Positions 14,468-60,402 of a stretch of 64,000 nt of DNA are shown piece after piece; position 1 is the stretch's first letter; every line of letters starts with the position of its first letter. The notes beneath the pieces were generated by a model. The model saw only the letters and a program-made list of their open reading frames with translations, was not told the DNA's origin and did no database searches. A program made the translations under genes and the position numbers. The stretch lies in the IMG/VR virus record IMGVR_UViG_3300019487_000002. One strand, 5' to 3'. This DNA is from a virus.

Positions 14468-14660
14468 TGCGGCCTTTCTTGCGATTCTTTCGGCACTTAT
14501 CAGTGCAATACTTGCGTACCGTTTGTCCTTTTTCACATTCGGCAGTTATCATAGGAATAATGATTCCACTGTTACACGTCTCACAAATACCAACAACGTC
14601 AACAAGAGGCGACCCTCCTCTGACTGAAACTGGAACCGTTATAAGCTGGTCTTGATTCAT
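14454..14660 (-). CDS. hypothetical Cys-rich protein
   Basis: 68 aa with CETC...CTDKCRKNRKK and a basic tail. Confidence 0.5.
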   Translation of the reverse strand: MNQDQLITVPVSVRGGSPLVDVVGICETCNSGIIIPMITAECEKGQTVRKYCTDKCRKNRKKGRNARR

Positions 14661-21079: not shown

Positions 21080-21352
21080 ATGGACCTTGAAGATATTCTT
21101 CATGGAACCCCAAAATGGAACGACGTTTCATTTTATTTCCAGAATGGGGAATTCTTCGAGGAGCACTATCTGGTAGAGGCTATCACAAAGCATCTGCTAA
21201 CCCCACCCCAGCGTGCTTGGCTGCATCGTGAGGCTCTAAGCATAGAAGATATGCTTAATGGCCGAATTGAAGGCAATCTTCGCCAAAAGTACGCACAGCA
21301 AATTTTTGACGAATGGAACCAAAAGCTGGGGTTTAAGCATTTCGGGGCTTGA
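21080..21352 (+). CDS. hypothetical protein
   Basis: 90-aa ORF. Confidence 0.5.
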   Translation: MDLEDILHGTPKWNDVSFYFQNGEFFEEHYLVEAITKHLLTPPQRAWLHREALSIEDMLNGRIEGNLRQKYAQQIFDEWNQKLGFKHFGA

Positions 21353-21377
21353 TTTTCAAATACAATCCGGGTATAAT
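21349..21377 (+). promoter_or_regulatory. sigma70-type promoter
   Basis: TTGATT-N17-TATAAT, then 6 nt to ATG 21384. The -35 overlaps the upstream TGA stop. Confidence 0.6.
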
Positions 21378-21383
21378 ACAACC

Positions 21384-22712
21384 ATGAGCACAATGAACCA
21401 CGGGCACGGGCAGCGTCATGAGCAGCTACACCTTCCGATGCCTTCGGATGCAGAGAAGCCGGCGCTAATCGACAAGGCGGCGGAATCGATCTCTCACAGC
21501 ATCATTCAGCTTCTCACCCGTCAGCCGTTTTTCGGCCAGTTGCTTTGCGGCCTTCGCCTCGTTCCTACGTGGTCAATGCCGACGATGGGTGTAGACGGCA
21601 TCAATCTTTTCTTCAATCCGTCATTTACGCTCGCGCTTTCTAAGCCACAGCGACGCGGCGTGCTGTGCCACGAGGTTATGCACCTTGCGCTTAGCCACAT
21701 TACTCGGCGTCGTCAGCGTCAGGACCGGCTCTGGAATGCGGCGTGCGATTACGCGGTCAACCTGATTGTGAAGGACGATCTTGACCTTGAGCTACCGAAT
21801 TGGGTTCTCTATCGCCAGGATTTCAAGGAAATGTCCGCAGAGGAGATTTTCCGTAAGCTGTGCGAGGAAAAGGCCAGCGGCGGTATGAAAGGCAAGCAGA
21901 AGGGTCAGGGAGGCCAGGGCCAGAAGGGTCAGGGCGGCGGTCAGGGTCAGCAGGAAGATGGCGACGGTGAGGATGATCCAAATTGCCCATACTGCCAGAA
22001 TGGTGACGGGGACGGGGACGGCCTCGATTCTTTTGACACGCACATTTTCAATCCTGACCTAGACGAAGATGCGTTGACCGACAAGCTGGTCCGTGCTGCC
22101 GAGCAGGCAAAGCGCCGTGGGCGCCTTCCCGCTGGGATTGAGCGGATTATCGACAAGCTGCGTGAAGCCAAGGTTGATTGGCGGACGCTGATTCGCGGCC
22201 GTGCGCTGGATATCTTCCAGAAAGTTGATTATCATGGCGAGCTACGTTCGCTCTTGACGGGTTCCGTCCTGGGCGGTCGCACGTGGCTTCCCGGCCTTGC
22301 GAAAGAGGAGGCGTCGTTGCTGGTTCTCTGCATCGATACGTCGGGCTCTATCAGCCCCGAGATTCTCAATGCATTCGCAGCCGAAATCAAAGAAGTAATC
22401 ACGATGGCAGATAAGACCATCATCATGACGTGCGACGCGGACGTGCATGAGTGTGTCGAGGTTGGCAAGTTTGACCAAATATTTGATGCCGTCAAGTTCA
22501 AGGGCGGCGGCGGTACTGACTTCCGCCCGGCCTTCGACAAGATTCATAAGATGGGGCTCAATCCCAATCTGTTTGTGTACTTCACGGACGGATATGGGTG
22601 CTTTCCTGACTCAATGCCGCAGTATCCGGTTCTGTGGGCCTTCACGAAGGATCACCAGCCGGCCCCGTGGGGCGAGAGTGTCACGGTAGATGCCGCGACG
22701 TATGAAAACTAG
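21384..22712 (+). CDS. metallopeptidase-like (DUF2201-type) / VWA-domain protein
   Basis: HEVMHLALSH motif, a G/Q/D-rich linker, and a C-terminal VWA fold with LVLCIDTSGS (DxSxS). This is the usual partner of MoxR ATPases. ATG 21384 rather than track position 21258. Confidence 0.75.
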   Translation: MSTMNHGHGQRHEQLHLPMPSDAEKPALIDKAAESISHSIIQLLTRQPFFGQLLCGLRLVPTWSMPTMGVDGINLFFNPSFTLALSKPQRRGVLCHEVMHLALSHITRRRQRQDRLWNAACDYAVNLIVKDDLDLELPNWVLYRQDFKEMSAEEIFRKLCEEKASGGMKGKQKGQGGQGQKGQGGGQGQQEDGDGEDDPNCPYCQNGDGDGDGLDSFDTHIFNPDLDEDALTDKLVRAAEQAKRRGRLPAGIERIIDKLREAKVDWRTLIRGRALDIFQKVDYHGELRSLLTGSVLGGRTWLPGLAKEEASLLVLCIDTSGSISPEILNAFAAEIKEVITMADKTIIMTCDADVHECVEVGKFDQIFDAVKFKGGGGTDFRPAFDKIHKMGLNPNLFVYFTDGYGCFPDSMPQYPVLWAFTKDHQPAPWGESVTVDAATYEN

Positions 22713-23402: not shown

Positions 23403-24214
23403 AGGATTCCCTTGGCGATAGGATGAAGGGATATGAACGGGCGCACCTTTCGCGTGCGTTGCCGGGTATCCCTGTTTGCGCCCGACTAGATGGCCGAGCT
23501 TTCCACAGTTGGTGCAGCGATTTGCACCGCCCGTGGGATAACAGCTTCCATCAGATTATGGACCGAGCTACGGCTTTTCTTGTAGAACAGACTAATGCCA
23601 AGATCGGCTATACACAGAGCGATGAAATTACGCTGATTTATTACGCCGATTCTCCTGAATCGCAAATATTCTTCGACGGAAAGATTCAGAAGATGACAAG
23701 CGTTCTAGCGTCCATGTGTACGGCAAAGTTCAACGAGGCTGCACGCCTTTTTCCTGATACTACACATAAGCCTTTAGCATTTTTTGATTGCCGTGTGTGG
23801 CAAGTCCCCAATCTCCGGGAAGCCGTCAGTGTACTAATTTGGAGAGAGGCAGACGCTCGACGCAATTCGATTATGATGGCGGCGCAAAGCTTCTATAGCC
23901 ATAAACAGCTTCTTGGGAAAAGTTCAAAAAAACAGCAGGAAATGCTACACGAAAAAGGCCTCAACTGGAGCAAGGAATACCCTGACCGATTCAAGCGCGG
24001 CGCATATTTTGCTCGCCGCATGGGTTATCGCGTAATGACCATGAGCGAGTTCTCACACATTCCTGAGGCACACCGCCCTGCGGCTCCACCTTTGGTTGAG
24101 CGCCGCGTCGTGAAGAACTTGCAGCTTGGTCCGATGCGACGTATCGTCAATAGTATTGACGTTGTTTTCAACGAAGCGGAGCCGGTGTATGGAACCTGTA
24201 ACGAGCACCCATAG
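23390..24214 (+). CDS. Thg1-like protein (tRNA-His guanylyltransferase family, 3'-5' nucleotidyltransferase)
   Basis: GDRMKGYE, ARLDGRAFH, YTQSDEITL, FDCRVW and WREADARRNS line up with Thg1/TLP conserved blocks. The start is TTG 23390 or GTG 23399, upstream of the first ATG. Confidence 0.8.
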   Translation: MPRVKDSLGDRMKGYERAHLSRALPGIPVCARLDGRAFHSWCSDLHRPWDNSFHQIMDRATAFLVEQTNAKIGYTQSDEITLIYYADSPESQIFFDGKIQKMTSVLASMCTAKFNEAARLFPDTTHKPLAFFDCRVWQVPNLREAVSVLIWREADARRNSIMMAAQSFYSHKQLLGKSSKKQQEMLHEKGLNWSKEYPDRFKRGAYFARRMGYRVMTMSEFSHIPEAHRPAAPPLVERRVVKNLQLGPMRRIVNSIDVVFNEAEPVYGTCNEHP

Positions 24215-25268
24215 AGCCGATATTGTAGAAGTTGTGCTTGGGCCGCACCCCAATGCCGATAGCCTTTCTATCGTCAAAATCTACGACGGTGGTTTTCAGG
24301 TTATTGTCAAAACCGAAGATTGGGTAGAGCGATATCGAGGCGTTTACATTCAGCCAGATAGTATTGTCCCCGACAAGCCTGAATTTGCCTTTCTAGAAAA
24401 GCGGCGAATCAAAGCCAAGAAATTGCGAGGCGAATGGTCCGCTGGCCTTCTTGTTCCTGTTCCACCGGAGTTTGAGCATTTGGAAACGGGCACTGATTTG
24501 GCTCCGCTCATGGGGATCGAACATTATGAGCCACCGCCGTCCATGCCCGGCCTAACGGGTGGTCTGACCGATTCGAGTCCAAAGTTCATCCGCAAGCAGC
24601 GAAAAGATGGAAAGTATGATGCGGAATTTATCGGCTTTGAATACCCGAAATACGATGTAGAGTCTTTTCGGAAATATGGAAAGCGGGTATACGAACCGGG
24701 TGAAATCATTTGGATAACAGAAAAGATACACGGCTCTAACGGTCGTTGGCTTTTCGACGGTAAACGGTTTTATTGTGGGAGCCGCACCGAATGGAAGAAA
24801 GAAGACCCACAGAACCTTTGGTGGCGTGCCCTCAATTATTACCCCACTCTTCAAGAATTCTTGAAGGCAAATCCTGGCGTGGCGGTGTATGGAGAAGTAT
24901 ACGGACAGGTACAGGATTTGAAATACGGAGTCCCAAAAGGGGAAATTCGAGTCGCAGTGTTTGATATCTTGCGGGAAGGAAAATGGATAAACGCGCTGGA
25001 GGCATGGAAGATAGGAAAGGATAATGGCTTGCCTTGGGTTCCCCTTCTTATGGGTGCAACCTATGACAGTCTCCCCGAGCCTGACTTGCTGCCTCGATTC
25101 GATTTTGACATGCTGATTGAAATGGCAGAAGGCCCGAGCCAGATTCCCGACGCGAACCATATTCGAGAAGGTATTGTCGTGAAGCCATGGGAAGAACGTT
25201 GGCACCCTAAAATGCAAGGACGTGTCTGCACCAAAATTGTAGGCAATGGGTATTGGGCAAGAAAGTAA
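24189..25268 (+). CDS. ATP-dependent RNA ligase with N-terminal OB-fold tRNA-binding-like domain
   Basis: Motif I ITEKIHGSN (KxHGxN, as in Rnl2/Rnl5-type ligases). The N-terminal HPNADSLSIVKI...IQPDSIVP resembles the Trbp111/EMAPII-type OB domain. ATG 24189. Confidence 0.75.
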   Translation: MEPVTSTHRADIVEVVLGPHPNADSLSIVKIYDGGFQVIVKTEDWVERYRGVYIQPDSIVPDKPEFAFLEKRRIKAKKLRGEWSAGLLVPVPPEFEHLETGTDLAPLMGIEHYEPPPSMPGLTGGLTDSSPKFIRKQRKDGKYDAEFIGFEYPKYDVESFRKYGKRVYEPGEIIWITEKIHGSNGRWLFDGKRFYCGSRTEWKKEDPQNLWWRALNYYPTLQEFLKANPGVAVYGEVYGQVQDLKYGVPKGEIRVAVFDILREGKWINALEAWKIGKDNGLPWVPLLMGATYDSLPEPDLLPRFDFDMLIEMAEGPSQIPDANHIREGIVVKPWEERWHPKMQGRVCTKIVGNGYWARK

Positions 25269-32748: not shown

Positions 32749-33161
32749 CTCGTCTGGAATCTACAGGCTCCAAGAGAAAAGTGTTTGTCCTTTACTCTTG
32801 GGAAGATTTTGAAAATGATCTTCGACAGATCAAAGTATTTCTTGAAGGTCGAAGTAGACTCTACACCGGAATTTATGCAATTCCCAGAGGCGGGCTGGTC
32901 TTAGGCGTCAGGCTGTCTCATGAGTTGGATTTACCGCTTATCTATGGCGGTGTAACGTCAGATACGTTAGTAGTAGATGAAATCGCGGACACTGGGGATG
33001 CCCTTCACCCATATTTGAAGAAGTGCGATACCATTGTTCTGCATCGAAATATTCGTTGCCCGATAAAGCCTACATTTTGGGCGCAGGATTCTGATGGATA
33101 TGTTATTTATCCTTGGGAATCACGAACGAGGGAAATAGAAAGATGCTCCATAGAGGATTGA
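32745..33161 (+). CDS. purine phosphoribosyltransferase-like
   Basis: PRPP-binding motif LVVDEIADTGDAL; 138 aa. Confidence 0.7.
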   Translation: MTRLESTGSKRKVFVLYSWEDFENDLRQIKVFLEGRSRLYTGIYAIPRGGLVLGVRLSHELDLPLIYGGVTSDTLVVDEIADTGDALHPYLKKCDTIVLHRNIRCPIKPTFWAQDSDGYVIYPWESRTREIERCSIED

Positions 33162-34213
33162 CGTTTGATGACGTTTTATTGGTCCCAAACTATAATGACT
33201 TCCGTTCACGTTCAGCCGTAACGACCATTGCTTCGCTCGACCGGCTTACTTTTAATATTCCAATTATAGCTGCAAACATGGACACCATTTGTGGTGCCGA
33301 AATGGCCCGCAAAATGTGGACATTGGGCGGATTAGGAATAATCCATCGGTTCATGCCAGTGGATCAGAACGTTGAAGAATACAAGAAAGCCGCCGAGCCT
33401 ATTTATTATGGACATTCTGCAAGAGGATATCTTGTTCCTTCTCATATGGATACACCTATCATCGGCGTGACTGTCGGTGTCAACGAAGGCTTAGAACGGG
33501 CAGAAGCGTTATATACCGCCGGCGCGTGGTTATTCTGTGTAGACGTAGCCCATGGGCACTCTCGCCTAACAGGTAAGATGGTCAAGGCTTTACGGGAGCG
33601 ATTCAATCAGGAAATCTTTATTATCGCTGGGAACGTCGCTACTTACGCAGGTGCCGATTACTTAGCTGGATGCGGTGCCGACGCTATCAAAGTTGGCATC
33701 GGCCCTGGTTCAGTTTGTACCACGCGCATGAAAACGGGATTCGGTGTTCCACAGATAACAGCCATTATGGAATGCAGTCGGTCACGTCGTCCTATTATTG
33801 CTGATGGTGGGATGCGTTCTCCCGGCGATGTAGTCAAAGCTCTTGCAGCCGGCGCCAGTATGGTTATGCTCGGTGGTATGTTGGCTGGAACATTAGAAAC
33901 CCCCGGCGAGGTTATATACCCAGAAGGGGAAGGTCCGGTTGGGCCAATAAAGGTCTTCCGAGGCATGGCTTCAGAAGAAGCCCACAGCGATTATTATGGG
34001 GATTTGCCTGATTGGAAAACAGCAGAAGGCGTGAGCATTACAGTACCGGCCCGTGGTAGCGTTGAAGAAGTCGTCAAGGACGTTGTGGGCGGATTACGTT
34101 CGGGCTTGACGTATTGCGGTGCATCTAATGTAACTGAACTACAGAGCAGAGTCGAATTTATAGAAGTTACGCGAGCGTCTTATGTCGAAGGTACACCCCA
34201 TGGCAAGCAATAA
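33143..34213 (+). CDS. GMP reductase-like (IMPDH/GMPR family, no CBS insert)
   Basis: [12 protein letters not shown], catalytic loop [14 protein letters not shown], and [22 protein letters not shown] 33143 follows GAGGGA. Confidence 0.8.
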
Positions 34214-38641: not shown

Positions 38642-38928
38642 TGGCACGCACGAGTAAATTTACTGTCGTTACCAACCGGAACGACCCCAGCACAGTAAGA
38701 ATGTTTTCAAAGCTGGAGGAAGCACAAGCGTTTGTAGGACCAGAATATGACCAAAAGGGGTTTGTATTAACCACCTTTGAGAAAAAGACCGAAACCTTCT
38801 TTAGTGTCGTAGAAGATGAAACTGAAAGCCCAATGTCTGCGTGGGATCGTGAAGAATTGGCACAGGAAGAACTTCAAGAAGAACAGCGCGCAGAGGATCG
38901 GAGAGCCCGTCAATTTGTGAGGGAGTAA
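38641..38928 (+). CDS. hypothetical protein
   Basis: 95-aa ORF. Confidence 0.5.
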   Translation: MARTSKFTVVTNRNDPSTVRMFSKLEEAQAFVGPEYDQKGFVLTTFEKKTETFFSVVEDETESPMSAWDREELAQEELQEEQRAEDRRARQFVRE

Positions 38929-39413
38929 TGAAAGACCTACAGTATCTCCGTCAGGCTTATGAAGAAGCCAAGTGCTTAAGCACTGACCCCAGTACCCAAA
39001 ACGGCTCGGTCCTCGTCAATCCAATCGGTATTGTGATTGCTACTGCCGCCAATCACTTCCCTTACGGTGTAAAAGAAACACCGGAACGTTGGGATCGTCC
39101 GTTGAAATATCACTACGTCGAGCATGCTGAGAGGAATGCTCTCTACAAAGCCGCTCGGATGGGCCATAAGACAGAAGGGGCAACGATGTATGTTCCTTGG
39201 TTTGCCTGTGCGGATTGCGCTCGCGGAATTATACAGTGTGGGGTAGAGGAAGTGGTAGGACACCAGAAAATGTACGACGGCACACCTGACCGATGGAAGG
39301 AAAGTATCCACGCGGCGTGGGAAATGCTGGACGAAGCGGGAGTTAAACATCGTCTTGTGGTGGCGGATTTCGGAATTAAAATTCGATTCAATGGTGAGGA
39401 ATGGGTCTCCTAA
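38928..39413 (+). CDS. dCMP deaminase
   Basis: VEHAERNAL (HAE) and PWFACADCARGI (PCxxC zinc site). Confidence 0.8.
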   Translation: MKDLQYLRQAYEEAKCLSTDPSTQNGSVLVNPIGIVIATAANHFPYGVKETPERWDRPLKYHYVEHAERNALYKAARMGHKTEGATMYVPWFACADCARGIIQCGVEEVVGHQKMYDGTPDRWKESIHAAWEMLDEAGVKHRLVVADFGIKIRFNGEEWVS

Positions 39414-40734: not shown

Positions 40735-41196
40735 ATGAAGGTATATCTTGCAGGTACCATTGCTACTACTGATGACTATTTCCAGAGATGGCGTCTAGAT
40801 GCGTGTAAGTTTCTCAAGAATCATGGGGTGATGCCCCTGTCGCCGCTGTCTCAAAAAGAAGCGGGAACATCACAAGATGGAGGGATTACATCAGCCATTC
40901 CGAACGATGCCATTCTTATGCGAGACTATGCAATGGTGAAATCTTCTCACTTAGTCCTTGCGAATTTGAAGATCATTGGCGACAAAGGAAAAGTAGAAAA
41001 GCCAATCATTGGTACTTTCTTCGAAATGGCGTGGGCTTGGGAAGCGAATAAACCTATTATTGCAGTTGTAGAACCTGACAATTATTTATTCAATATGCAC
41101 CCGTTCCTAGCAAAGACTATAACACAAAAGTTCCCTACTCTCGAAGATGCACTGGATAATATCGTGAGCTACTGGAACTGGCATTATGAAAAGTAA
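40735..41196 (+). CDS. nucleoside 2-deoxyribosyltransferase-like protein
   Basis: MKVYLAG N-terminus and GTFFEMAWAWEANKPIIAVV. Confidence 0.65.
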   Translation: MKVYLAGTIATTDDYFQRWRLDACKFLKNHGVMPLSPLSQKEAGTSQDGGITSAIPNDAILMRDYAMVKSSHLVLANLKIIGDKGKVEKPIIGTFFEMAWAWEANKPIIAVVEPDNYLFNMHPFLAKTITQKFPTLEDALDNIVSYWNWHYEK

Positions 41197-46074: not shown

Positions 46075-46845
46075 GTGCCAAAAATAAGTTCTCACTGCTC
46101 TATTTGTAAATTACCTACCGCCGACCGTGATGGTTTTCACACTGACAAATGGGTCAATCATTTTACCCACGCTCAATTGGCGACCAAGTATTTTCCACAG
46201 AGGTCTATAGCTACTGTTCTCAAGTCTTGTACTGTCCACTTCGAGAAACATTTTCCCTTTGACGAATTCGTCAATGAAATCGTTGACGAAAAGACAAAAG
46301 CAGATAGCACTAATCTTCCCACTATATCAGCCACAGAAAGAGCAATATTTACTGAAGCGTATCAATCGCGCTTAGATTCAGTTCGAACCATCGAGTCCAT
46401 GATGCGGACGCTGATGGATAGAGCAAACGTCATCCAGGAAGAATGGAATAAGGTTCACATTGCCACGAAATGTGAGGAATGCGGTCGAGATGATACTGGA
46501 CCCAACCTTGTGAAAATTCTCGCAGTATTCCGCGAGCTTCGTGAACAGGTAGACCAATGGACTAAGATGCGGAATCCCATGGGGGCCGTTAATAAGATTG
46601 CCGAGAAGGCATTCGTAACGTTCGTGGAAGAAATGACTGACGTGTACGTCTTAGTCATGTCTGACAAGTCTCGACTGATTCGAGATGCGGTAAATGACTT
46701 TCTTGCTGAGAAAATAAATCAAGGCATGTTCGCCAAGCGTATAACGGAAGCATTAGACGATTTTGGCGGAGATAGGATTTCGTCGTCGGCCCAAGAGAAG
46801 TACCAGAAGATATTTTCAACGGTGATGAAGGAGTTGAAGTTGTAA
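46075..46845 (+). CDS. hypothetical protein
   Basis: 256-aa ORF with a GTG start and no SD. Confidence 0.55.
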   Translation: MPKISSHCSICKLPTADRDGFHTDKWVNHFTHAQLATKYFPQRSIATVLKSCTVHFEKHFPFDEFVNEIVDEKTKADSTNLPTISATERAIFTEAYQSRLDSVRTIESMMRTLMDRANVIQEEWNKVHIATKCEECGRDDTGPNLVKILAVFRELREQVDQWTKMRNPMGAVNKIAEKAFVTFVEEMTDVYVLVMSDKSRLIRDAVNDFLAEKINQGMFAKRITEALDDFGGDRISSSAQEKYQKIFSTVMKELKL

Positions 46846-48047
46846 TGGCGAAGAAGACGATAGCGGTTTACGCAGACACCCCCACGGTCTGCACCGGATT
46901 TGGAAACGTTACCAAAAGTATTTTCACTAATCTTGGTGATGAATACGAGATTAAAATTGTAGGTATTAACTACAATGGGTATCCTCATAATTACCCTAAT
47001 CTGAAGATTTACCCAGCGTGTAATCCCTTGTATGTAGGCGGCGGCGTAGATTACTACGGTAGAGAACACCTAAAGCGTTGGGTAGAAACTGAACACTTTG
47101 ATCTATTCTTCATGCTCAACGACGGATGGCTTCTTCGTGATTTTGCACCAGACGTGGTAGAACGCATCAAGAAGAAAGGGAAAAGTATTCCTACTGTCTG
47201 TTATTTCCCTATCGATTGCGATGAGACCGAAGGCGCGTGGTATGATTGGATGATGGACGTGGAAGTCCCTGTGACGTACACAGAATTCGGCCTGAACATC
47301 GTGAAGAAAATATTTCCTGCTCTGGGACTAAGAACAAAAGTAATCCCTCACGGCGCGGACGTTGACACGTTCAAGCCAATCCCACGCGGTTCCGATCAGA
47401 AAGTTGCTCATTATCGCAATCTCGTAGGGGGAGAGTTCGCGTTCATCAACGTCAACAAGAATCAGGTTCGTAAGAACGTACCCGGGTCTATTGCGGCCAT
47501 GCGAGAGTACCAACGCATGATTGATAATGGCGATACTATGGTTCTTCACATGAACGAAGAAGAAGGTGTGGGATGCCACGTTCGAATAATTGCGAACAGC
47601 CTCGAATTTCAGAAGAAGAACACAATCCGTATTTCCCCTGCTCGATTGGATGAGGAACATCTTAACTGCATGTATAACGCTTGCCAAGTAGCTATGACTA
47701 CTTCCGCAGGTGAAGGATGGGGATTGAGTATTTCCGAAGCTATTTGTGCGGGGATACCAGTTATTGCTCCTCGGCACACGTCTTTCCCTGAGGTAGTCCG
47801 TGAGTTTGGATATCTCTATGATCCTGGGATGCGTCATTGTGCATTACCTCTTAGTACGGATAGAAGCAATTGGCGATATTACGCCGATCCAAAAGTCGTC
47901 GCTGAAGCGATGCTCGACGTGCGTAAGAACTATGTCCGCTACAAGGAAATGGCCCTTAAAGGTCGGAAGTGGTATGAAGAAAACCGGACATGGAAACATC
48001 ATATCGTCCCTGAATGGAGAGAGTTGTTTGCTCAACTCATGTCATAA
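46845..48047 (+). CDS. GT-B glycosyltransferase (family 1/4-like)
   Basis: SAGEGWGLSISEAICAGIPVIAP (E-x7-E motif). Confidence 0.8.
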   Translation: MAKKTIAVYADTPTVCTGFGNVTKSIFTNLGDEYEIKIVGINYNGYPHNYPNLKIYPACNPLYVGGGVDYYGREHLKRWVETEHFDLFFMLNDGWLLRDFAPDVVERIKKKGKSIPTVCYFPIDCDETEGAWYDWMMDVEVPVTYTEFGLNIVKKIFPALGLRTKVIPHGADVDTFKPIPRGSDQKVAHYRNLVGGEFAFINVNKNQVRKNVPGSIAAMREYQRMIDNGDTMVLHMNEEEGVGCHVRIIANSLEFQKKNTIRISPARLDEEHLNCMYNACQVAMTTSAGEGWGLSISEAICAGIPVIAPRHTSFPEVVREFGYLYDPGMRHCALPLSTDRSNWRYYADPKVVAEAMLDVRKNYVRYKEMALKGRKWYEENRTWKHHIVPEWRELFAQLMS

Positions 48048-48243: not shown

Positions 48244-48387
48244 ATGGCAAAGACCCATACCTCACGCGAGGAGTTCTGGGCTACCGTCCAGGCTCTTGTT
48301 ACCGACTATCAGAACAAGCAAGACGACGCAGGAAAGTTTCTAGCCAAGCTGGCGGAAGTCCGCGACGAGCCTGTCCGCGAAGTGTAA
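48244..48387 (+). CDS. hypothetical small protein
   Basis: 47 aa; its stop overlaps the next start. Confidence 0.45.
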   Translation: MAKTHTSREEFWATVQALVTDYQNKQDDAGKFLAKLAEVRDEPVREV

Positions 48388-49025
48388 TGCCAAAGCCATA
48401 CACGCTCGTTACCGCTGATAAGTCAGTCTATCACAGCGATGAATGGGGCGTACTTCATCAAATTGACGCCAAGCCTATAGCGTATGATGCAGCTTACCTT
48501 ACGCAGCATACCTCTAAGCCAAACTACAAAGAGAATTCATTAATCCTTAATGGTCTACGCCTGGGCTTCCTAGTCGGAAGCATGGGCTATGTGCCACGTA
48601 TGTTACTAGATTATGGCTACGGTGACGGGAGTTTTGCCGCTCTGGCCGCACGAATTGTGCCATACGTTTACGGCTACGATATAGGCGATTATCCAATACA
48701 CTCAACGTGCTGCCGAACCAAGAATCCCAAAACATTACACGTTGAAGTGGTCACGTATTGGGATTCATTAGAGCACGTTCCTGATCTAGAAGTGGCTCTT
48801 GATACGCCGGCTAAATATGTCGCTGTCAGTGTCCCGTGCCTGCCGCATGTAAGCGTCTTCGAGGATTGGAAACACCGCCGCCCCAACGAACATCTTCATC
48901 ATTTCACAGAGAATTCACTCAAAGCCTGGATGGCGTGCCACGGTTGGGTGCATCGTGCGAGTGCCCCTCTTGAAGAAGCTATTAGAGATGATATAATCAC
49001 GGCACTTTTTCAAAGGAGAGACTAA
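48387..49025 (+). CDS. class I SAM-dependent methyltransferase
   Basis: Motif I LLDYGYGDGSFAALA; 212 aa. Confidence 0.7.
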   Translation: MPKPYTLVTADKSVYHSDEWGVLHQIDAKPIAYDAAYLTQHTSKPNYKENSLILNGLRLGFLVGSMGYVPRMLLDYGYGDGSFAALAARIVPYVYGYDIGDYPIHSTCCRTKNPKTLHVEVVTYWDSLEHVPDLEVALDTPAKYVAVSVPCLPHVSVFEDWKHRRPNEHLHHFTENSLKAWMACHGWVHRASAPLEEAIRDDIITALFQRRD

Positions 49026-51688: not shown

Positions 51689-51717
51689 TTGACTAATTTT
51701 TTACACACGTGTATATA
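51689..51717 (+). promoter_or_regulatory. sigma70-type promoter
   Basis: TTGACT-N17-TATATA, then 6 nt to ATG 51724. Confidence 0.6.
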
Positions 51718-51723
51718 TTCATT

Positions 51724-52089
51724 ATGAAGCCACATTTCATTAATCTAGCCAAGAAGGCCGCAAAATGCAGTCGCCATCAGTTTAAGGTCGGGACTGTCAT
51801 TGTGCGTAAAAATAGACTAATAAACTGGGGACATAACAAGCCTGACCGCACCCATCCTCGTAGTAAAAATGCCTGGAATCGTATTCACGCAGAGCTTGAT
51901 GCAATTCTTGGTGTCCCTCTTGAGGACTTGAAAGGCGCAGAGGCTTACGTCGTTCGTATTACGAATACGGGGCTTCTGGCGATGAGTCGTCCATGCGAAC
52001 ACTGTATGGCTCTCCTCAAAGAAGTAGGCATCCGAAAAGTTTATTACACTGATAATAAACGAGCGGTGCAGATGGAACGTGTCAGCTAA
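51724..52089 (+). CDS. small CDA-fold zinc deaminase
   Basis: HAELDAI and SRPCEHCMALL (HAE + PCxxC); 121 aa. Confidence 0.7.
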   Translation: MKPHFINLAKKAAKCSRHQFKVGTVIVRKNRLINWGHNKPDRTHPRSKNAWNRIHAELDAILGVPLEDLKGAEAYVVRITNTGLLAMSRPCEHCMALLKEVGIRKVYYTDNKRAVQMERVS

Positions 52090-54268: not shown

Positions 54269-54308
54269 AAGCCGGTTGGGTCTCTTGACTCAGCCGGCTT
54301 TTCCGTTT
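54269..54308 (+). terminator. intrinsic terminator
   Basis: AAGCCGG, an 18-nt loop, then CCGGCTT followed by TTTTCCGTTT. Confidence 0.55.
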
Positions 54309-54313
54309 ATAGT
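54285..54313 (+). promoter_or_regulatory. sigma70-type promoter embedded in the terminator
   Basis: TTGACT-N17-TATAGT, then 8 nt to ATG 54322. Confidence 0.5.
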
Positions 54314-54534: not shown

Positions 54535-55065
54535 ATGATCTACTTTACCTCAGACACTCATTTCGGCCATACCAATATCATCAAGTATTGTGATCGGCCG
54601 TTTGCGAACGTAGACGAAATGAATCGGGTCATGACCGAGCGATGGAATAGCGTGGTCAAGCCTGAGGATACCGTCTTTCACCTTGGCGACGTGGCAATGG
54701 GTCCAAAGCATCTGATTCCGAGCTATATGGCGGGCCTCAACGGGAAGGTCATTCTCATTGCTGGCAATCATGATCGCGTAACTGAATTTCTCAAGCTGAG
54801 TATTGAGGTTCACGAGGAATACCGGATGCCGATTGGCAATGATAGCTATATCTATATGCATCATGAGCCATATTACATGGCGGAACCTGATCCGATGATG
54901 CTGTTCTTCCTGTGTGGGCATATCCACCAGCAGTATCGGCGCCGCACCTACGGCAATGGTCAGAAGATTATCAACGTCGGCGTAGACGTTTGGGATTTTA
55001 CTCCTCGCACCCTCTATCAGCTTATGGAAGGTGACAACGAAGGGACTACGGAGAATTGGGTATGA
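54535..55065 (+). CDS. metallophosphoesterase
   Basis: YFTSDTHFGH, HLGDV, GNHD and GHIH motifs. Confidence 0.75.
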   Translation: MIYFTSDTHFGHTNIIKYCDRPFANVDEMNRVMTERWNSVVKPEDTVFHLGDVAMGPKHLIPSYMAGLNGKVILIAGNHDRVTEFLKLSIEVHEEYRMPIGNDSYIYMHHEPYYMAEPDPMMLFFLCGHIHQQYRRRTYGNGQKIINVGVDVWDFTPRTLYQLMEGDNEGTTENWV

Positions 55066-55241
55066 GTTTTATCGAAATGTGGTTTTTCCTTGCAATGACA
55101 GCAAACGGTATTCCCGTTCATACGGGGCCATTTAAGACCGAGACTGATTGCAAGGCGGCTATGCATGTGGCGACCACTCAGCCACACGATATTACGATGC
55201 CTCGAATGTTTGTTGTTCTTCCGTGCTGGCGGGGTCAGTGA
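55062..55241 (+). CDS. hypothetical small membrane protein
   Basis: ATGA junction; hydrophobic N-terminus. Confidence 0.45.
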   Translation: MSFIEMWFFLAMTANGIPVHTGPFKTETDCKAAMHVATTQPHDITMPRMFVVLPCWRGQ

Positions 55242-55627
55242 ATCTCTATGAGATTCTAGTTCCTACCGTGCGTCCAAACGGGCGACCGATACGGACGAAG
55301 TGTCACCGCCAATGGGATGAACAGGTACGCCGCATTACGTCGGGGCTTACTATTCTCAATCCGACGAAGGGACAGTGGATTTCCCCTTCTGGCGAATTAT
55401 TCATAGAGCGCATGATCCCTGTACGCATCATGTGTACGCAGAAGCAGATTGAGCAAATTGCCTTGATGACGATTAAGTTTTACGAGCAGCAAGCGGTGAT
55501 GTACTACCGTGTCAGTGATGAAGTAAAGATCGTGTACGCACCGGAAAAGAAAATCAAATGTTCTTACCGTGGTTCTTCTCGGCGGTGTAAAAGAGAATCA
55601 GGACATATGGGCGCGCACGTAATTTAA
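55238..55627 (+). CDS. hypothetical protein
   Basis: GTG 55238 overlaps the upstream stop; begins VNLYEILVPT. Confidence 0.55.
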   Translation: MNLYEILVPTVRPNGRPIRTKCHRQWDEQVRRITSGLTILNPTKGQWISPSGELFIERMIPVRIMCTQKQIEQIALMTIKFYEQQAVMYYRVSDEVKIVYAPEKKIKCSYRGSSRRCKRESGHMGAHVI

Positions 55628-56049
55628 CAATAAGTTCCGGCACGCCTGAATCGCGTTCTTCGCTTGTGACAGTTTGCACAGGCAATCTCACATTTATCAA
55701 TTTCTTTTTCTATCCTCCACCACGGCCAGCCTTGATAAACTGCGACAGAAACGTCAACAAGCTTGTCCCGCAAATGATCGAACTCCAGAACAATCGGGTC
55801 GTCTTCTCCGCAATCTTTGCAAGGATTGTCCCTTAGATATTCTAGGACTCTTTTCTTATTCTCAGCCACTATTAGCCTCTTTCTTGTGGCAACGAGCTTG
55901 ATATGATTTTCTCTATTTCTTTGATAATACCGTGCGCTTTTTGCGCGGCTACATAATTTGCATATTGTTTGATAGCCGTCTCTTTTGGTTTTATTTTTGT
56001 TGAAGCTTGACTTAGGTTTAGGAATCTGGCAAAGTGAGCATGTCTTCAT
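55624..56049 (-). CDS. HNH endonuclease
   Basis: CSLC..CKLC N-terminal ribbon, LEFDHLRDK, and CANCHKRRT. Confidence 0.75.
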   Translation of the reverse strand: MKTCSLCQIPKPKSSFNKNKTKRDGYQTICKLCSRAKSARYYQRNRENHIKLVATRKRLIVAENKKRVLEYLRDNPCKDCGEDDPIVLEFDHLRDKLVDVSVAVYQGWPWWRIEKEIDKCEIACANCHKRRTRFRRAGTYC

Positions 56050-56084
56050 GTACTTTTAAACTCTTTTGCTACTTAAAAGTACAT
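56048..56084 (-). promoter_or_regulatory. 12-bp perfect hairpin covering the first 2 nt of the HNH start codon
   Basis: ATGTACTTTTAA, a 13-nt loop, then TTAAAAGTACAT. The A and U of the minus-strand AUG (56049-56047) lie in the 3' arm. Confidence 0.45.
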
Positions 56085-56091
56085 AGTGTTT

Positions 56092-56165
56092 GGGAGCATA
56101 GCTCAGGTTGGTAGAGCTACCGCCTTTTAAGCGGAAGGTCGCAGGTTCGACCCCTGCTGCTCCCA
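56092..56165 (+). tRNA. tRNA-Lys (anticodon UUU)
   Basis: Manual cloverleaf: a 7-bp perfect acceptor stem, D arm GCTC/GAGC, anticodon loop CTTTTAA, T arm GCAGG-TTCGACC-CCTGC, discriminator A. Positions 27:43 form an A-A mismatch. Confidence 0.9.
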
Positions 56166-56181
56166 CTAAAGCACTCGCGTA

Positions 56182-56210
56182 TTGACTTAATGACCAATAA
56201 CCCTTATAAT
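56182..56210 (+). promoter_or_regulatory. sigma70-type promoter with the GCGTATTGACT motif
   Basis: GCGTA-TTGACT-N17-TATAAT, then 7 nt to ATG 56218. Confidence 0.65.
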
Positions 56211-56217
56211 ACACGAC

Positions 56218-57003
56218 ATGCATCGTTCATGGCCTGAGCACTGCATACTCCCTGAGGGGAGGTATGTGGTCGTGGGTGATCTCCAGAATGGGTATGGTGC
56301 TATGCCTTACCTTGAGGAGCGTACCGACCTTATCAAGCTTTTTATTGGGGATTACCTCGATAGCTGGATTGCTACGCCCGCAGCGCAGGTGCGTGAACTC
56401 CAGCGCATTCTTAACCTCATAGAGCGTGGGGAGGCGGTTGCTGTGTGGGGAAATCACGATGCCCATTACTTCGGTCCTGGCTTTATTCAGGGCTCTGGAT
56501 GGAATCCAACTACGAAGGCGCTTGTAACGCCTATGAGAATGGCAATGGAGAAGCTTATTCGGCCTTTCCTTTACCATGAGCGGAGCCGGGCTCTGTTCAC
56601 GCATGCCGGCCTTACCAAGAAGCTTTGGGATAGGTGCGAGCTTGATTTCGATTCGCTGGTGCCCACGCTTCACGGTTGGAGCCTCAACTACGATAGCCCG
56701 TTTTTCAACATCGGATATGGTCGCGGAGGTTTCGGTATTGGTGGTCCTCTCTGGTGTGATTGGCATACAGAGTTTGAGCCCGTTCCTGGGCTTACACAGG
56801 TAGTCGGCCACACTGGTAGCTTCCACAAGAAGCCAAAGGTAGACGGCGACCGATGGGGATACCTCCGATGCAAGGGCGGAAACAACTGGAACACGGATTG
56901 TCTTGGCCGTGATGACAGTTATGACTTCCTCATTTTTGATACATCAGACGCTTCTTTCTCGGGACTCCGCGTCGAGAAGAACGGAAACATATATCAGTCG
57001 TAG
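56218..57003 (+). CDS. calcineurin/lambda-phosphatase-type metallophosphoesterase
   Basis: VVGDLQNGYG, GDYLDSW, WGNHD, THAG and VGHT motifs. Confidence 0.75.
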   Translation: MHRSWPEHCILPEGRYVVVGDLQNGYGAMPYLEERTDLIKLFIGDYLDSWIATPAAQVRELQRILNLIERGEAVAVWGNHDAHYFGPGFIQGSGWNPTTKALVTPMRMAMEKLIRPFLYHERSRALFTHAGLTKKLWDRCELDFDSLVPTLHGWSLNYDSPFFNIGYGRGGFGIGGPLWCDWHTEFEPVPGLTQVVGHTGSFHKKPKVDGDRWGYLRCKGGNNWNTDCLGRDDSYDFLIFDTSDASFSGLRVEKNGNIYQS

Positions 57004-57007
57004 AGAA

Positions 57008-57022
57008 TATGAGAGATATTAC
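57008..57022. repeat. inverted partial copy of the 23-bp repeat
   Basis: TATGAGAGATATTAC is the reverse complement of GTAATATCTCTCATA. Confidence 0.6.
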
Positions 57023-57077
57023 TTTAAGCGCCGATAAAGTGCTTGAAAACTCAAGGCGAAATGCGTAAAACGCAAAG

Positions 57078-57123
57078 TCTGTAATATCTCTCATACAGAA
57101 TCTGTAATATCTCTCATACAGAA
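57078..57123 (+). repeat. perfect tandem duplication of a 23-bp unit (candidate operators)
   Basis: TCTGTAATATCTCTCATACAGAA twice with no spacer. Each unit carries TCTGTA / TACAGA inverted arms. The repeat ends 12 nt before the ligase ATG. Confidence 0.9.
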
Positions 57124-57135
57124 CATGATAAACAT

Positions 57136-58299
57136 ATGAGTGACTTTTGGAACATACGAGTAGAAAATGGTATGCGGCTTATTACGCCGTCGCACTCTGC
57201 GGCGGTCGGGAATGCGGCATGGTCCCGCGACAATCTGTGGTGGCGCTCGCGTGTCGAGACGGTCAAGGGTGAACTTGTTTCTCAGGGCTTTGGAAAGTTT
57301 TTCAACCTGGGGATGGGTCCGCTCGATCTGAATATTGGTCTTGCAGACGTAGCGAAGGCGGTAGATCGTGGAGACGCCTTGGCGACTCTCAAGCTGGATG
57401 GATCGCTCCTCATTCGATCGGTGTATAAGGGGAAGGTCATACTCCGCACGCGGGGCTCGTTTACCTATGAGCACTTGGACAATGCATTCGAAATGGAGGA
57501 GTTCAAGCGCAAGTACCCGCTGCTTTTCGATCCGATCTTTGCGTATAACTACTCTTTGCTTCTGGAGTGGGTATCTCCTAATAACGTAATTGTTATTAAG
57601 TACCCCGAGCCTGAGCTTGTGATCGTCGGCGCGGTAGACCACCGCACTATGTCGTATGTGCGAGCAGAGGAATTGAAGGCGTTCGCGGAAATGACGGATA
57701 TGACGGATATGAAGATGGTTGATTTCTTCCCTTTGACCAAAAAGGGCTGGGAAGATTTGTATGCGAATCTCGACTCCAATCATGAGGTTGAGGGATACGT
57801 CATTCGCCTGAATAACGAGCAGCGTCTTGTTAAGGTCAAGTGTGCGCCGTATCTGACGAAGCATTCTCTTAAGTCGCGCCTGGATTCGGAGACACTCGCG
57901 GATATGTATTTCCAGTACGGCCGCCCTGACTTCTCGGGATTTGTTACGGAGTTTGGAAAGTCCTTTGACGAGGAAGTCGCTATGTGGGCCATGCCGGCGA
58001 TTGCTTCGTTGTATGATGGTGTTCGTGAGCTTAACGCTATCGAGCGTCATATTACGGAAAAGGTTGCAAAGCGTCGTGAGGGGGGTCTTTCTCGGAAAGA
58101 GTTTGCTATCGTGACGCAAAACGAGTATGGTAAGACGAAGAAGTTTGCATTCGCCATGAACCTGTTTCTTGGGATTCACGGAGACAAGAACGATAAGCTT
58201 CTCAAGTCGATTCTTTTGCAGAATACAAAGCAGATTGAAATGTCTTTCTTGAAGGCCGGTCGGGATGATCTAGAGCCTGATGATGGCTTGGAGGTTTAA
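57136..58299 (+). CDS. rnlA: T4 Rnl1-type RNA ligase
   Basis: FGKFFNL, motif I LKLDGSL, LEWVSPNNVIVIKY, EGYVIR and VKVKCAPYLTKH are collinear with T4 RnlA blocks; 387 aa. Confidence 0.85.
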   Translation: MSDFWNIRVENGMRLITPSHSAAVGNAAWSRDNLWWRSRVETVKGELVSQGFGKFFNLGMGPLDLNIGLADVAKAVDRGDALATLKLDGSLLIRSVYKGKVILRTRGSFTYEHLDNAFEMEEFKRKYPLLFDPIFAYNYSLLLEWVSPNNVIVIKYPEPELVIVGAVDHRTMSYVRAEELKAFAEMTDMTDMKMVDFFPLTKKGWEDLYANLDSNHEVEGYVIRLNNEQRLVKVKCAPYLTKHSLKSRLDSETLADMYFQYGRPDFSGFVTEFGKSFDEEVAMWAMPAIASLYDGVRELNAIERHITEKVAKRREGGLSRKEFAIVTQNEYGKTKKFAFAMNLFLGIHGDKNDKLLKSILLQNTKQIEMSFLKAGRDDLEPDDGLEV

Positions 58300-58658
58300 T
58301 GCGCGCTAGAAGTTTCTTTGGACAATCAGGATTTTCTTATCCGATTATTTCTTCTCCATTGATTTCCATAGCTGTTTTGACAGCTTTGGGGTATATTCCA
58401 CTATGGGTCACGGCCACATATTTGGGCCTTCTTGGCGTTTCGACGCTTTACCTCAAGTATTTGAGAATTCCGCATCTTAAGCGGGTCGCTGTATGTCTCA
58501 CTTACTTTGGAATGGTCCGTTGTCCACATGGCAAGTATCTCCCCGATCAGATTTGTGAAACGTGTGCCGAAGCTTTTATTGCACGCCAGGAACAAGCATA
58601 TGTGAATTTGATTCAACAGCAGACTCAGGCGCCTGGGCCTAAAGAAACAGTTCATTAA
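58299..58658 (+). CDS. hypothetical membrane protein
   Basis: Two hydrophobic helices, then CPHG..CETC. Confidence 0.55.
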   Translation: MRARSFFGQSGFSYPIISSPLISIAVLTALGYIPLWVTATYLGLLGVSTLYLKYLRIPHLKRVAVCLTYFGMVRCPHGKYLPDQICETCAEAFIARQEQAYVNLIQQQTQAPGPKETVH

Positions 58659-58661
58659 TAC

Positions 58662-58745
58662 GCCGGTATGGCGGAATTGGCAGACGCAGAGGATTCAAAA
58701 TCCTCCGCCTTAAAAGGCATGGGGGTTCGACTCCCTCTACCGGCA
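58662..58745 (+). tRNA. tRNA-Leu (anticodon CAA), type II with long variable arm
   Basis: Manual fold: acceptor GCCGGTA/TACCGGC, anticodon stem GAGGA/TCCTC with loop TTCAAAA, variable arm GCC-TTAAAA-GGC, T loop TTCGACT. Confidence 0.9.
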
Positions 58746-58749
58746 CTCT

Positions 58750-59043
58750 ATGAGTAAAAGAGAACGTGAGCGAAAGTATTACTTAGAAATTCGCAAGCGA
58801 GTAATGCATTGGTTGGGTAAGGTCTGTGAAAGGTGCGGAGAAAAAGATTTTCGTGTCCTTCAAATATCGCACTTCAAACCGATTAGAAGGAAAACTCGTA
58901 CTTCATCCGACAGTGGAAGCGCCTTAGTTCGATTCCTTAATAAAAAAGGACAGAGTTATACGGTTAAGAATTTTCGATTATTGTGTGCTAACGATCACTT
59001 ACGTAGGACATGGGAAAACGGTGAGTGGTGTAATAGAAAATGA
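58750..59043 (+). CDS. HNH-like endonuclease
   Basis: [13 protein letters not shown] and [11 protein letters not shown]. It starts 4 nt after the tRNA-Leu. Confidence 0.65.
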
Positions 59044-60020
59044 CTCATAGCAAAGCCTACCAAATCCTTGGGCTTGAATCGGGAGCTAGCTCGGAAGATA
59101 TTCAGAAAGCATTCCGGCGGCTTTCTAAAAAGTATCATCCAGATAAGAACGCGGGAAGCAAGGAAGCAGAAGAAAAATTCAAAGAACTCAACGAAGCCAA
59201 GGAATCCCTACTCTCCAAGGACGGTTCCATTCGAGACGAGGAAGACTACTTCTCGGCACAGATGCGGGAGTACCAAGATACCGCTTTTGAGCATCTATTC
59301 CGTAACATGACTTCGCGCTCCCGCGCTGGGGATGATTTGCACCACATTCTCGAAATTACGCTAGAAGAAGCCGCATTAGGAGGGATGAAAACTTTCACTA
59401 CTATGCGGCTAGTAAAGTGTGAGCCTTGTCATGGGCGAGGCGGGACAGGGGAAGAAGCGTGTAATCAGTGTGGCGGACATGGGCATACGGCATCTACGAT
59501 GGGCTCGATATTTATGCAGCAAGTCTGTTTTGTCTGCCAAGGTCGTGGTTCACAGATAAAAAGCAAATGTAGCGTGTGTAGAGGAGAAGGACGCTTTCCA
59601 AAGGAAGAAGTGGTGACGGTTCAACTCAAGCCAGGGATAGATGATGGATTTACGCTAATGAAGCGAAATTCCGGCCATGCTGGCAAAGATGGAGGCCGCC
59701 CCGGTAACTTCTTTGTGCATATCGTACAGAAACCCCACTCCACATTCCAAAGAGACGGATTAAATCTTAATACGGAAATTGCTATTCCCTTTCACCTAGC
59801 AGCACTTGGGGGCGATATTGAAATTCCGACGTTAGTGGGACCGAAGGTGAAATTGAAAATTCCACCCGGTACACAACCAATGACAGAATTTCGTTTGCAA
59901 GGGAAGGGCATTCAATGCGATAGTGTTACCGGAGACCTAATGGTTGCTGCTCGGGTTGAAATACCCACCGTTTTAAGCGATAAGCAAAAAAGGCTTCTAA
60001 AAGAATTTGCGAGGTCATAA
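59040..60020 (+). CDS. dnaJ: DnaJ-type co-chaperone
   Basis: J domain [14 protein letters not shown]. Four CxxCxGxG repeats ([32 protein letters not shown]). C-terminal substrate-binding domain. Confidence 0.85.
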
Positions 60021-60373: not shown

Positions 60374-60402
60374 TTGACTAATTAACGCTCTCCGTATATA
60401 TT
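60374..60402 (+). promoter_or_regulatory. sigma70-type promoter with the GCGTATTGACT motif
   Basis: GCGTA-TTGACT-N17-TATATT, then 6 nt to ATG 60409. Confidence 0.6.

Follow-up and report, generated by a model that had tools for sequence, protein, structure and literature searches.

A candidate RNA end-healing and sealing island beside two tRNA genes in an uncultured phage of ~181 kb

We analyzed a putative RNA repair island in a 64,000-nucleotide stretch of viral DNA (IMG/VR record IMGVR_UViG_3300019487_000002), hereafter the window. The island starts at position 54,535 and comprises, in order, a metallophosphoesterase gene (MPE1), an HNH endonuclease gene on the minus strand, tRNA-Lys(UUU), a second metallophosphoesterase gene (MPE2), an Rnl1-family RNA ligase gene, a coupled open reading frame (ORF) of 119 amino acids, tRNA-Leu(CAA), and a second HNH endonuclease gene. 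An initial annotation, made from the sequence alone, had correctly listed the metallophosphoesterases, the ligase, and the tRNAs, but it listed tRNA-Lys ahead of both metallophosphoesterase genes rather than between them, and it omitted the two HNH genes, the coupled ORF, and a second RNA ligase elsewhere in the window. The source genome is ~181 kb long (the database entry for the ligase lies on a 180,775-bp contig), and the same phage is present as two contigs in ENA assembly ERZ27251177 (k141_473305, 148,550 bp, and k141_128790, 32,371 bp). Of this genome, we inspected the window and 10 kb on each side (L007, +10 kb, and L168, −10 kb), 84 kb in total. A megablast search of 50,697 phage records with the 6-kb region returned nothing, indicating a novel phage.

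The ligase gene (57136..58299, plus strand) encodes a 387-amino-acid ATP-dependent RNA ligase of the Rnl1 family, which matched Pfam PF09511 (2e-12), phrog_562 (4.5e-39 over residues 27–366), and TIGR02308 (4e-18, residues 48–364). Motif I corresponds to K86-LDGSL (57391–57408), motif III to E144, motif IV to E219-G220, and motif V to K233/K235. Across 29 aligned homologs, K86, D88, G89, S90, E144, E219, G220, and K235 were invariant, as were K54, F55, and N57 of an upstream KFFN element, and K233 was retained in at least 90%. The AlphaFold (AF2) model of the protein (predicted local distance difference test score, pLDDT, 89.6) found its best PDB matches in the T4 Rnl1 structures 5TT6, 2C5U, and 9DO4, with T4 Rnl1 structures aligning at E ~1e-17 over 379–388 columns, followed by the ligase domains of fungal Trl1 and by archaeal Rnl3. 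The model is helical over residues 237–362, which represent the Rnl1-type C-terminal domain. Identity to T4 Rnl1 is ~20%, and the TIGR02308 score of 65.6 falls under the equivalog cutoff of 242. The assignment as a genuine but distant member of the Rnl1 family is well supported by sequence and model, and the protein is predicted to seal tRNA breaks. The Rnl1 homology proposed in the initial annotation was thus borne out by the PF09511 match, the conserved motifs, and the top structural matches, and the short motifs listed there (GDLQNGYG, GDYLD, GNHD, and VGHT in MPE2, and KLDGSL in the ligase) are all present. No homolog from a cultured phage was found at 27% identity or more. A scan of genome contigs for the ligase clade returned three metagenome-assembled genome (MAG) contigs only, and the clade therefore appears essentially confined to phages and metagenomes.

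The second RNA ligase is of the DraRnl/DRB0094 type (24126..25268, plus strand; PHA02142 OB domain and PF09414 RNA_ligase; TIGR02306 1.3e-33), a family that seals nicks in duplex RNA. Here it is encoded 32 kb from the Rnl1 gene, and in 17 related loci a ligase of this type is found within 7 kb of Rnl1. In another relative (L171, 3922–5952; ENA ERZ27247320, contig k141_417650), the Rnl1 homolog itself is split by an intein with LAGLIDADG-like motifs, which is inserted exactly within ligase motif I (the intein, C...HN, separates KLDG from SLLIRS).

MPE1 (54535..55065, plus strand) encodes a 176-amino-acid metallophosphoesterase of the COG4186/aq_1665 type, a candidate RNA 3'-end healing enzyme. 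It matched Pfam Metallophos_2 (7.6e-10), phrog_547 (1.4e-46), and PDB entry 1XM7 (aq_1665; 1.9e-11). Aligned with its relatives, all of its catalytic motifs are intact (SDTHFGH, HLGD, GNHD, HH, and GHIH). The best matches in cultured phages were genes labeled "phosphoesterase" in Streptomyces phages of the BE cluster, at ~40% identity.

MPE2 (56218..57003, plus strand) encodes a 261-amino-acid metallophosphoesterase with the motifs GDLQN, GDYLDS, GNHD, THAG, and VGHT. The ATG at 56218 is taken as its true start because the N-terminal extension MHxxxxExCxLPxG is conserved in MPE2 homologs. The protein had no PHROG match and a single Pfam match (Metallophos, 2.1e-5); matches to LTA4H in a sequence search of the PDB were spurious. 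Its AF2 model (pLDDT 80) had as top PDB match in Foldseek the phosphatase domain of Clostridium thermocellum Pnkp (CthPnkp; 4J6O; E 1.7e-5, template modeling score 0.52), narrowly ahead of PP5 and calcineurin, with PP2A also listed. The lambda-phosphatase-type label of the initial annotation is, judging from this model, fair at the level of the fold (PPP/lambda-phosphatase-like), but the active-site signature departs from it, as detailed below. The MPE2 family has 5913 representatives at E<=1e-3, with stand-alone proteins of ~230–260 amino acids, and a search of the 50,697 phage records recovered one weak match among cultured phages. MPE2-like genes begin 11–52 nucleotides (nt) past a tRNA gene in three separate contexts (56166–56218 in the window, 8758–8769 in L004, and 1607–1632 in L170); in L170, the gene follows an array of 12 tRNAs, with no Rnl1 within 6.7 kb.

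To place these genes in a broader context, we gathered 167 loci encoding relatives of the Rnl1 ligase (loci are designated by L numbers), of which 119 are non-redundant, and clustered the ORFs located up to 7 kb from Rnl1 without prior labels; the ranking excludes antisense artefacts and one family of 173 amino acids. The most frequent neighbors were MPE1-like genes (29 of the 119 loci, window included), followed by a Pnk-like polynucleotide kinase (23 loci), MPE2-like genes (17 loci, window included), and the DraRnl-type ligase (17 loci). When only the 47 loci flanked by 4 kb or more of sequence on each side were considered, a metallophosphoesterase was present in 14 of the 18 kinase-bearing loci versus 8 of the 29 kinase-less ones. 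Sixteen loci contain a kinase as well as an MPE1-like gene; the two genes adjoin each other in 13 of these loci and overlap by 8 nt in 11. The kinase also adjoins an MPE2-like gene in L073, L138, and L159, and a metallophosphoesterase of the lambda-phosphatase type in L012. In L001, Rnl1 itself is fused to a metallophosphoesterase of the latter type (P0088, 637 amino acids), and a kinase is encoded 0.5 kb upstream. This co-occurrence of kinase, metallophosphoesterase, and Rnl1 genes in relatives supports a shared predicted role in RNA end healing and sealing.

The kinase of these relatives is a kinase-only protein of ~152 amino acids that matches PF13671 and phrog_505 (polynucleotide kinase). 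A P-loop lysine and one arginine are invariant in all nine aligned kinases, and an SSD..R motif is found in six of the nine; we take these to correspond to catalytic residues of T4 Pnk. The kinase is encoded near the ligase in L012, L001, and L006, whose ligases are 51%, 43%, and 41% identical to the one studied here, respectively.

Gene order around the ligase is also conserved in relatives. MPE2 lies immediately upstream of Rnl1 in L002, L004, L171, and L011, and the order MPE2, Rnl1, 119-amino-acid ORF is kept in L002 (Rnl1 69% identical) and L004 (60%). In L171, an MPE1-like gene (59% identical), an MPE2-like gene (53%), and the intein-bearing Rnl1 gene follow one another contiguously. MPE1 is missing from L002 and L004, together with the neighboring HNH gene and an ORF at 55148, and we initially considered it an unrelated insertion; this view was revised given the contiguous arrangement in L171 and the rank of MPE1-like genes as the commonest neighbors of Rnl1. 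The initial annotation had favored MPE2 as the healing enzyme. Its CthPnkp-like fold and its adjacency to Rnl1 agree with that proposal, but MPE1-like genes are the commoner neighbor, are coupled to the kinase (in one lineage), and have an intact active site. For the 3'-healing step, MPE1 ranks no lower than MPE2 as a candidate. Among the remaining neighbors of Rnl1, the 173-amino-acid family, whose function is unassigned, lies directly upstream of Rnl1 in 25 loci (e.g., L117, 6550–7071), and a protein with an RF-1/GGQ domain is found in 11 loci (e.g., L032, 2–469; Pfam RF-1, 2.7e-26).

Both tRNA genes were confirmed by ARAGORN and Rfam: tRNA-Lys(UUU) at 56092..56166 (plus strand; 65.4 bits versus a gathering score of 29) and tRNA-Leu(CAA) at 58662..58746 (plus strand; 54.5 bits). 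The tRNA-Lys gene encodes no CCA, its anticodon loop is CUUUUAA, and its anticodon stem reads ACCGC/GCGGA, so that the A27-A43 mismatch reported in the initial annotation is real. This stem presumably differs from that of E. coli tRNA-Lys. The loop is the canonical CUUUUAA in all phage tRNA-Lys genes examined, while the 27:43 pair varies by locus: the window and L037 have A.A, L004 has G.A, the L010 clade has C-G, and the other loci have G.U, U.G, or A-U. We rejected A27-A43 as a conserved phage signature, as weak or mismatched 27:43 pairs are common among the tRNA-Lys genes examined. For the same reason, and because the closest clade with tRNA-Lys beside Rnl1 (L010) has a normal C-G pair, the mismatch is poor evidence for a nuclease-resistant tRNA. 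L004 and the L010/L009/L088/L089 clade, the latter without MPE2, also have an Rnl1 gene with tRNA-Lys(UUU) upstream and tRNA-Leu(CAA) downstream, and L002 has the tRNA-Leu only; overall, the tRNA-flanked arrangement is found in few lineages. Earlier work had already remarked that phage tRNA-Lys(UUU) coincides with rnl genes (PMC10264068).

We propose, with a probability of roughly 0.55, that the island is an RNA end-healing and sealing set, its substrate most likely being tRNA, encoded beside two phage tRNA genes. According to this model, a metal-independent anticodon nuclease would leave a 2',3'-cyclic phosphate or a 3'-phosphate, which one or both metallophosphoesterases would remove; a small T4-Pnk-like kinase would phosphorylate the 5'-OH, as it presumably does in related phages; and the Rnl1-type ligase would then seal the broken tRNA. 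The proposal builds on the identities and motifs of the proteins, the order of the genes, their conservation, and the co-occurrence of the kinase in relatives. From these, we infer the substrates, the division of labor between MPE1 and MPE2, and any link to a particular host nuclease, with the activities of the proteins being predicted from sequence.

Several lines of evidence weigh against this proposal, one of them being the missing kinase. We found no Pnk-like kinase in the window or in its 10-kb flanks using strict and relaxed Walker-A patterns, tblastn searches with the L001 kinase and the Pnkp of phage Karimac, an iterated hidden Markov model built from the Pnk-like kinases of related loci, which matched no window ORF even at E<100, and Pfam scans of ~60 window ORFs. 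The Walker-A proteins of the window are RecA, an SNF2 helicase, and similar proteins, none of which is kinase-like. The closest relatives (L002, L004, L010, and L005) likewise have no kinase gene up to 10 kb from Rnl1. In a profile search of 5.8 billion proteins with nine kinases, none of the best 120 of 4412 matches came from a contig equal in length to that of this phage or of a close relative. A P-loop protein in L007 (16937–17929) was dismissed as a Pnk, as it belongs to phrog_1250, whose function is unassigned, and is not Pnk-like. Other end-processing enzymes were likewise not detected: the inspected 84 kb contain no HAD/DxDxT Pnkp phosphatase, and the Pfam scan of window ORFs returned no match to the 2H, HD, KptA/Tpt1, RlaP, RtcB, or CCA-adding families. 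A methyltransferase (48387–49025) considered as a Hen1 candidate matched UbiG-like structures only and had no similarity to Hen1 structures. The claim that the window holds no P-loop polynucleotide kinase was therefore upheld by motif, BLAST, profile, and Pfam searches. The broader wording, an island without a recognizable kinase, holds for the 84 kb inspected but not as a statement about the whole ~181-kb genome: the expected kinase either lies in the uninspected ~99 kb or was lost from this phage.

The active site of MPE2 raises a second difficulty. The window protein and all of its close homologs have glutamine instead of the first metal-ligand histidine (DLQ for DxH; GDLQN in place of the canonical GDxHG), and the position of GDxxDR reads GDYLDS, with the arginine absent throughout the MPE2 family. 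MPE2 thus departs from the full lambda-phosphatase/PPP signature (DxH...GDxxDR...GNH[DE]...H...GH) at both DxH and GDxxDR. More distant members of the family, including some near Rnl1 in other phages, retain DPH, DLH, or DIH. In CthPnkp, the Mn-dependent monoesterase activity, unlike the diesterase activity, requires His189 and Arg237, and the H189Q mutant has lower activity, being less active than H189A (PMC2190708, PMC1920235). The H189D mutant is a pure 2',3'-cyclic phosphodiesterase producing 2'-phosphate ends, which are sealed by yeast tRNA ligase but not by T4 Rnl1 (PMC2190708, PMC1920235). Since the equivalents of His189 and Arg237 are missing, MPE2 may be diesterase-biased, altered, or weakened.

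The remaining objections concern the association itself. All 13 adjacent kinase–MPE1 pairs belong to one Rnl1 lineage and represent roughly one evolutionary event; 16 of the 47 well-flanked Rnl1 loci have none of these neighbors; the MPE1 family occurs in 1503 phage records, most of them without a nearby Rnl1; and MPE2-like genes are found without Rnl1 in L169 and L170. The last two observations fit a possible, though clearly less probable, alternative, namely that these genes are neighbors without a shared pathway. The metallophosphoesterases would then do other work, such as protein dephosphorylation (similar to lambda NinI), degradation of cyclic-nucleotide defense signals, or DNA-end processing; Rnl1 would act alone or with other partners; and the tRNAs would simply serve AAA and UUG codons that are poorly read by the host. 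The absence of MPE1 from L002 and L004 points in the same direction, as does its weak match to PdeM (in NCBIfam, a ligase-associated DNA damage response endonuclease), and an earlier study predicted that calcineurin-like phosphodiesterases act against nucleotide signals (PMC7824862). Codon supply also remains a simple alternative for the tRNAs, as AAA accounts for 44% of the lysine codons and UUG for 16% of the leucine codons of the phage. Chance proximity is, however, difficult to reconcile with the P0088 fusion of a metallophosphoesterase to Rnl1, with an MPE2–Rnl1 adjacency kept down to 60% ligase identity, with the emergence of both metallophosphoesterase families among the top Rnl1 neighbors in an unlabeled clustering, and with kinase–metallophosphoesterase adjacency in at least four separate lineages.

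If the absence of a kinase is taken at face value, the ligases could instead reseal nicks left by metal-dependent nucleases (Toprim enzymes similar to AriB, possibly also PIN enzymes similar to VapC) with 3'-OH and 5'-phosphate ends, while the metallophosphoesterases would treat occasional 3'-phosphate ends only or play another role. This scenario, which we regard as unlikely, agrees with the lack of a kinase near Rnl1 in the closest relatives and with a separate clade (L027, L037, L044, L096, and others) that combines Rnl1, an MPE1-like gene, and tRNA arrays and in which up to 10 kb of sequence contains no kinase. It is also in line with the presence of the DraRnl-type ligase in this phage. 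A precedent is provided by AriB of PARIS, whose cut in the anticodon stem of tRNA-Lys(UUU) falls between positions 40 and 41, leaving a 3'-OH and an expected 5'-phosphate (PMC12409363). Such a nick needs only a ligase, neither a phosphoesterase nor a kinase. The initial annotation had grouped PrrC and PARIS as threats to host tRNA-Lys; because AriB breaks are already ligatable and need no healing (PMC12409363), the two types of threat should not be grouped. Resealing alone would, however, leave the conserved metallophosphoesterase beside Rnl1 unexplained, kinases are found near the ligases of L012, L001, and L006, and ~99 kb of the genome lie outside the inspected sequence.

A kinase-less route of tRNA repair could also take a different form, in which MPE2 acts as a pure 2',3'-cyclic phosphodiesterase leaving 2'-phosphate and 3'-OH ends, or in which only breaks with a 5'-phosphate are repaired; the Rnl1 homolog, MPE1, or an unrecognized partner would complete the repair after MPE2. 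We consider this variant rather improbable. Finally, a main role of the Rnl1 homolog in virion assembly, with its ligase activity and neighbors incidental (as in tail-fiber attachment by T4 gp63), is very improbable: phrog_562 is annotated as "RNA ligase and tail fiber protein attachment catalyst" and the ligase of L005 adjoins baseplate genes, but in the window the gene follows a sigma-70-like promoter in an early or metabolic neighborhood, distant from any structural genes, its catalytic residues are all strictly conserved, and its recurrent neighbors encode RNA-end enzymes.

Returning to the healing and sealing proposal, we compared the island with known repair systems. One of these is the repair of PrrC-cleaved tRNA-Lys by T4 Pnkp (PseT) and Rnl1 (gp63), with which it shares the ligase family, the Rnl1-type C-terminal domain, and, presumably, the order of healing before sealing. 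T4 encodes Pnkp, while the inspected 84 kb contain neither a kinase nor a HAD phosphatase and the healing candidates are stand-alone metallophosphoesterases. To our knowledge, T4 encodes no tRNA-Lys, unlike this phage. In the bacterial CthPnkp-Hen1 system, a dinuclear metallophosphoesterase of the lambda-phosphatase type heals 3' ends, and this domain, the best PDB match of MPE2, acts on 2',3'-cyclic phosphate ends (PMC2190708, PMC3675462). The combination of kinase, metallophosphoesterase, and ligase in CthPnkp is matched by the modules of the relatives taken together (L001). CthPnkp is a single polypeptide, whereas the proteins here are separate, the ligase is of the Rnl1 type rather than a Pnkp ligase domain, no Hen1 was found, and MPE2 is without the equivalents of His189 and Arg237 needed for the Mn-dependent monoesterase (PMC2190708). 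The system is thus T4-like in logic and bacterial-Pnkp-like in its healing fold, and it belongs to neither architecture.

The nearest cultured analogues are the Streptomyces BE-cluster phages, such as Karimac (NC_048724), whose Rnl1-type ligase is 24% identical. The Karimac region resembles the window in its interspersed tRNAs, including Leu(CAA) and Gln(UUG), and in its dCMP deaminase, SprT-like protein, HNH genes, and metallophosphoesterase. Karimac encodes a full T4-like Pnkp (kinase and HAD, 296 amino acids) 0.8 kb from its ligase, a protein with no homolog in the window or in close relatives. These best cultured matches hint at an actinobacterial host, despite a GC content of 47%. Phage T5 likewise encodes a tRNA-Lys(UUU), which serves as a PARIS-resistant replacement; the 27:43 mismatch seen here is not the feature of the T5 tRNA-Lys. 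Positions 40–41 of the phage tRNA-Lys are C-G and not the C-A cut by AriB (PMC12409363).

Jumbo phages are known to carry RNA repair sets in which ATP-grasp ligases (Rnl1 and Rnl2) accompany kinases, phosphoesterases, and phage tRNAs, and calcineurin-like phosphatases have been proposed as RNA repair enzymes for a small number of these phages (Iyer et al. 2021, PMC7824862). At ~181 kb, the phage studied here is just under the usual 200-kb threshold for jumbo phages. Relative to that work, the two sequence-defined metallophosphoesterase families, the overlap of kinase and MPE1-like genes, the metallophosphoesterase–Rnl1 fusion, and the DxQ variant of MPE2 are new.

The island appears to be expressed from sigma-70-like promoters. 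One (TTGACT-17-TATAGT; 54285..54313, plus strand) ends 8 nt before the ATG at 54322 and probably starts the transcription unit that holds MPE1. Another (TTGACT-17-TATAAT; 56182..56210, plus strand), with 11 of 12 matches to the consensus, ends 7 nt before the ATG of MPE2, and a similar element precedes MPE2 in L002. This strong promoter places MPE2, Rnl1, and the 119-amino-acid ORF in one unit, with which tRNA-Leu is probably co-transcribed. A third promoter (TTGACT-N17-TATAxT) is located at 60374–60402, upstream of the ATG at 60409. All three near-consensus promoters end 6–8 nt before an ATG (54322, 56218, and 60409), a short spacing that suggests leaderless-type mRNAs.

The 119-amino-acid ORF (58299..58658, plus strand) is kept 3' of Rnl1 in L002 and L004. 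Its ATG overlaps the stop codon of the ligase gene (ATGA), and its product, which matches no family in Pfam or PHROGs, contains two hydrophobic helices as well as a Cys-rich tail. The first HNH gene (55624..56049, minus strand; phrog_2255, 1.2e-34) and the small second one (58750..59043, plus strand), directly 3' of tRNA-Leu, have no counterpart in the syntenic relatives L002 and L004; abutting the two tRNA genes, they are likely mobile homing-endonuclease insertions. The 159-amino-acid ORF at 55148..55627 (plus strand), whose function is unassigned, was seen in this phage but not in L002 or L004 and is called as two ORFs of 59 and 129 amino acids in the ENA assembly. Downstream of the second HNH gene lies a full-length DnaJ gene (59040..60020, plus strand); the relative L002 also encodes HSP20.

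More generally, the window is rich in replication and nucleotide-metabolism genes (PolA, Prim-Pol/helicase, ribonucleotide reductase, ThyX, RecA, SbcCD, and DNA ligase). Auxiliary genes at 33113–34213, 38928–39413, 40735–41196, 46845–48047, 51709–52089, and 59040–60020 comprise an IMPDH/GMP-reductase-like gene, two cytidine/dCMP deaminases, a nucleoside 2-deoxyribosyltransferase, a GT4 "conflict-system" glycosyltransferase, and the DnaJ gene. The glycosyltransferase gene is followed in the window by the Methyltransf_23 methyltransferase gene (48387–49025) and, in the syntenic slot of L002 (1239–1886), by a gene of the PolyA_pol family, a Pfam family that includes CCA-adding enzymes; the tRNA genes of the window encode no CCA. 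A 560-amino-acid protein (12854–14536, minus strand) combines a FEN-like 5'-3' exonuclease with a domain of the uracil-DNA-glycosylase superfamily. An ATPase gene (phrog_1297; 19584–20885) precedes a gene for a DUF2201 metallopeptidase/VWA-like protein (21258–22712), which is labeled "HNH endonuclease" in PHROGs (phrog_1314), a label for which Pfam gives no support.

Cleavage of tRNA is a widespread anti-phage strategy, employed by PrrC, RloC, PARIS, retron effectors, and Schlafen-like nucleases, and the means by which phages counter it are now being inventoried. The general idea of phage RNA repair sets is already published, so that the value of the present locus is incremental unless its kinase-less state proves real; tRNA repair without a polynucleotide kinase in this lineage would, if true, raise its interest. 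The analysis brings to light MPE1-like and MPE2-like enzymes, the P0088 fusion, and a natural DxQ active-site variant. Taken together, this locus and ~120 related loci suggest that uncultured large phages assemble repair sets not around the fused kinase-HAD Pnkp of T4 but from separate proteins: a ligase of the Rnl1 family, a small Pnk with kinase function only, and members of two uncharacterized metallophosphoesterase families.

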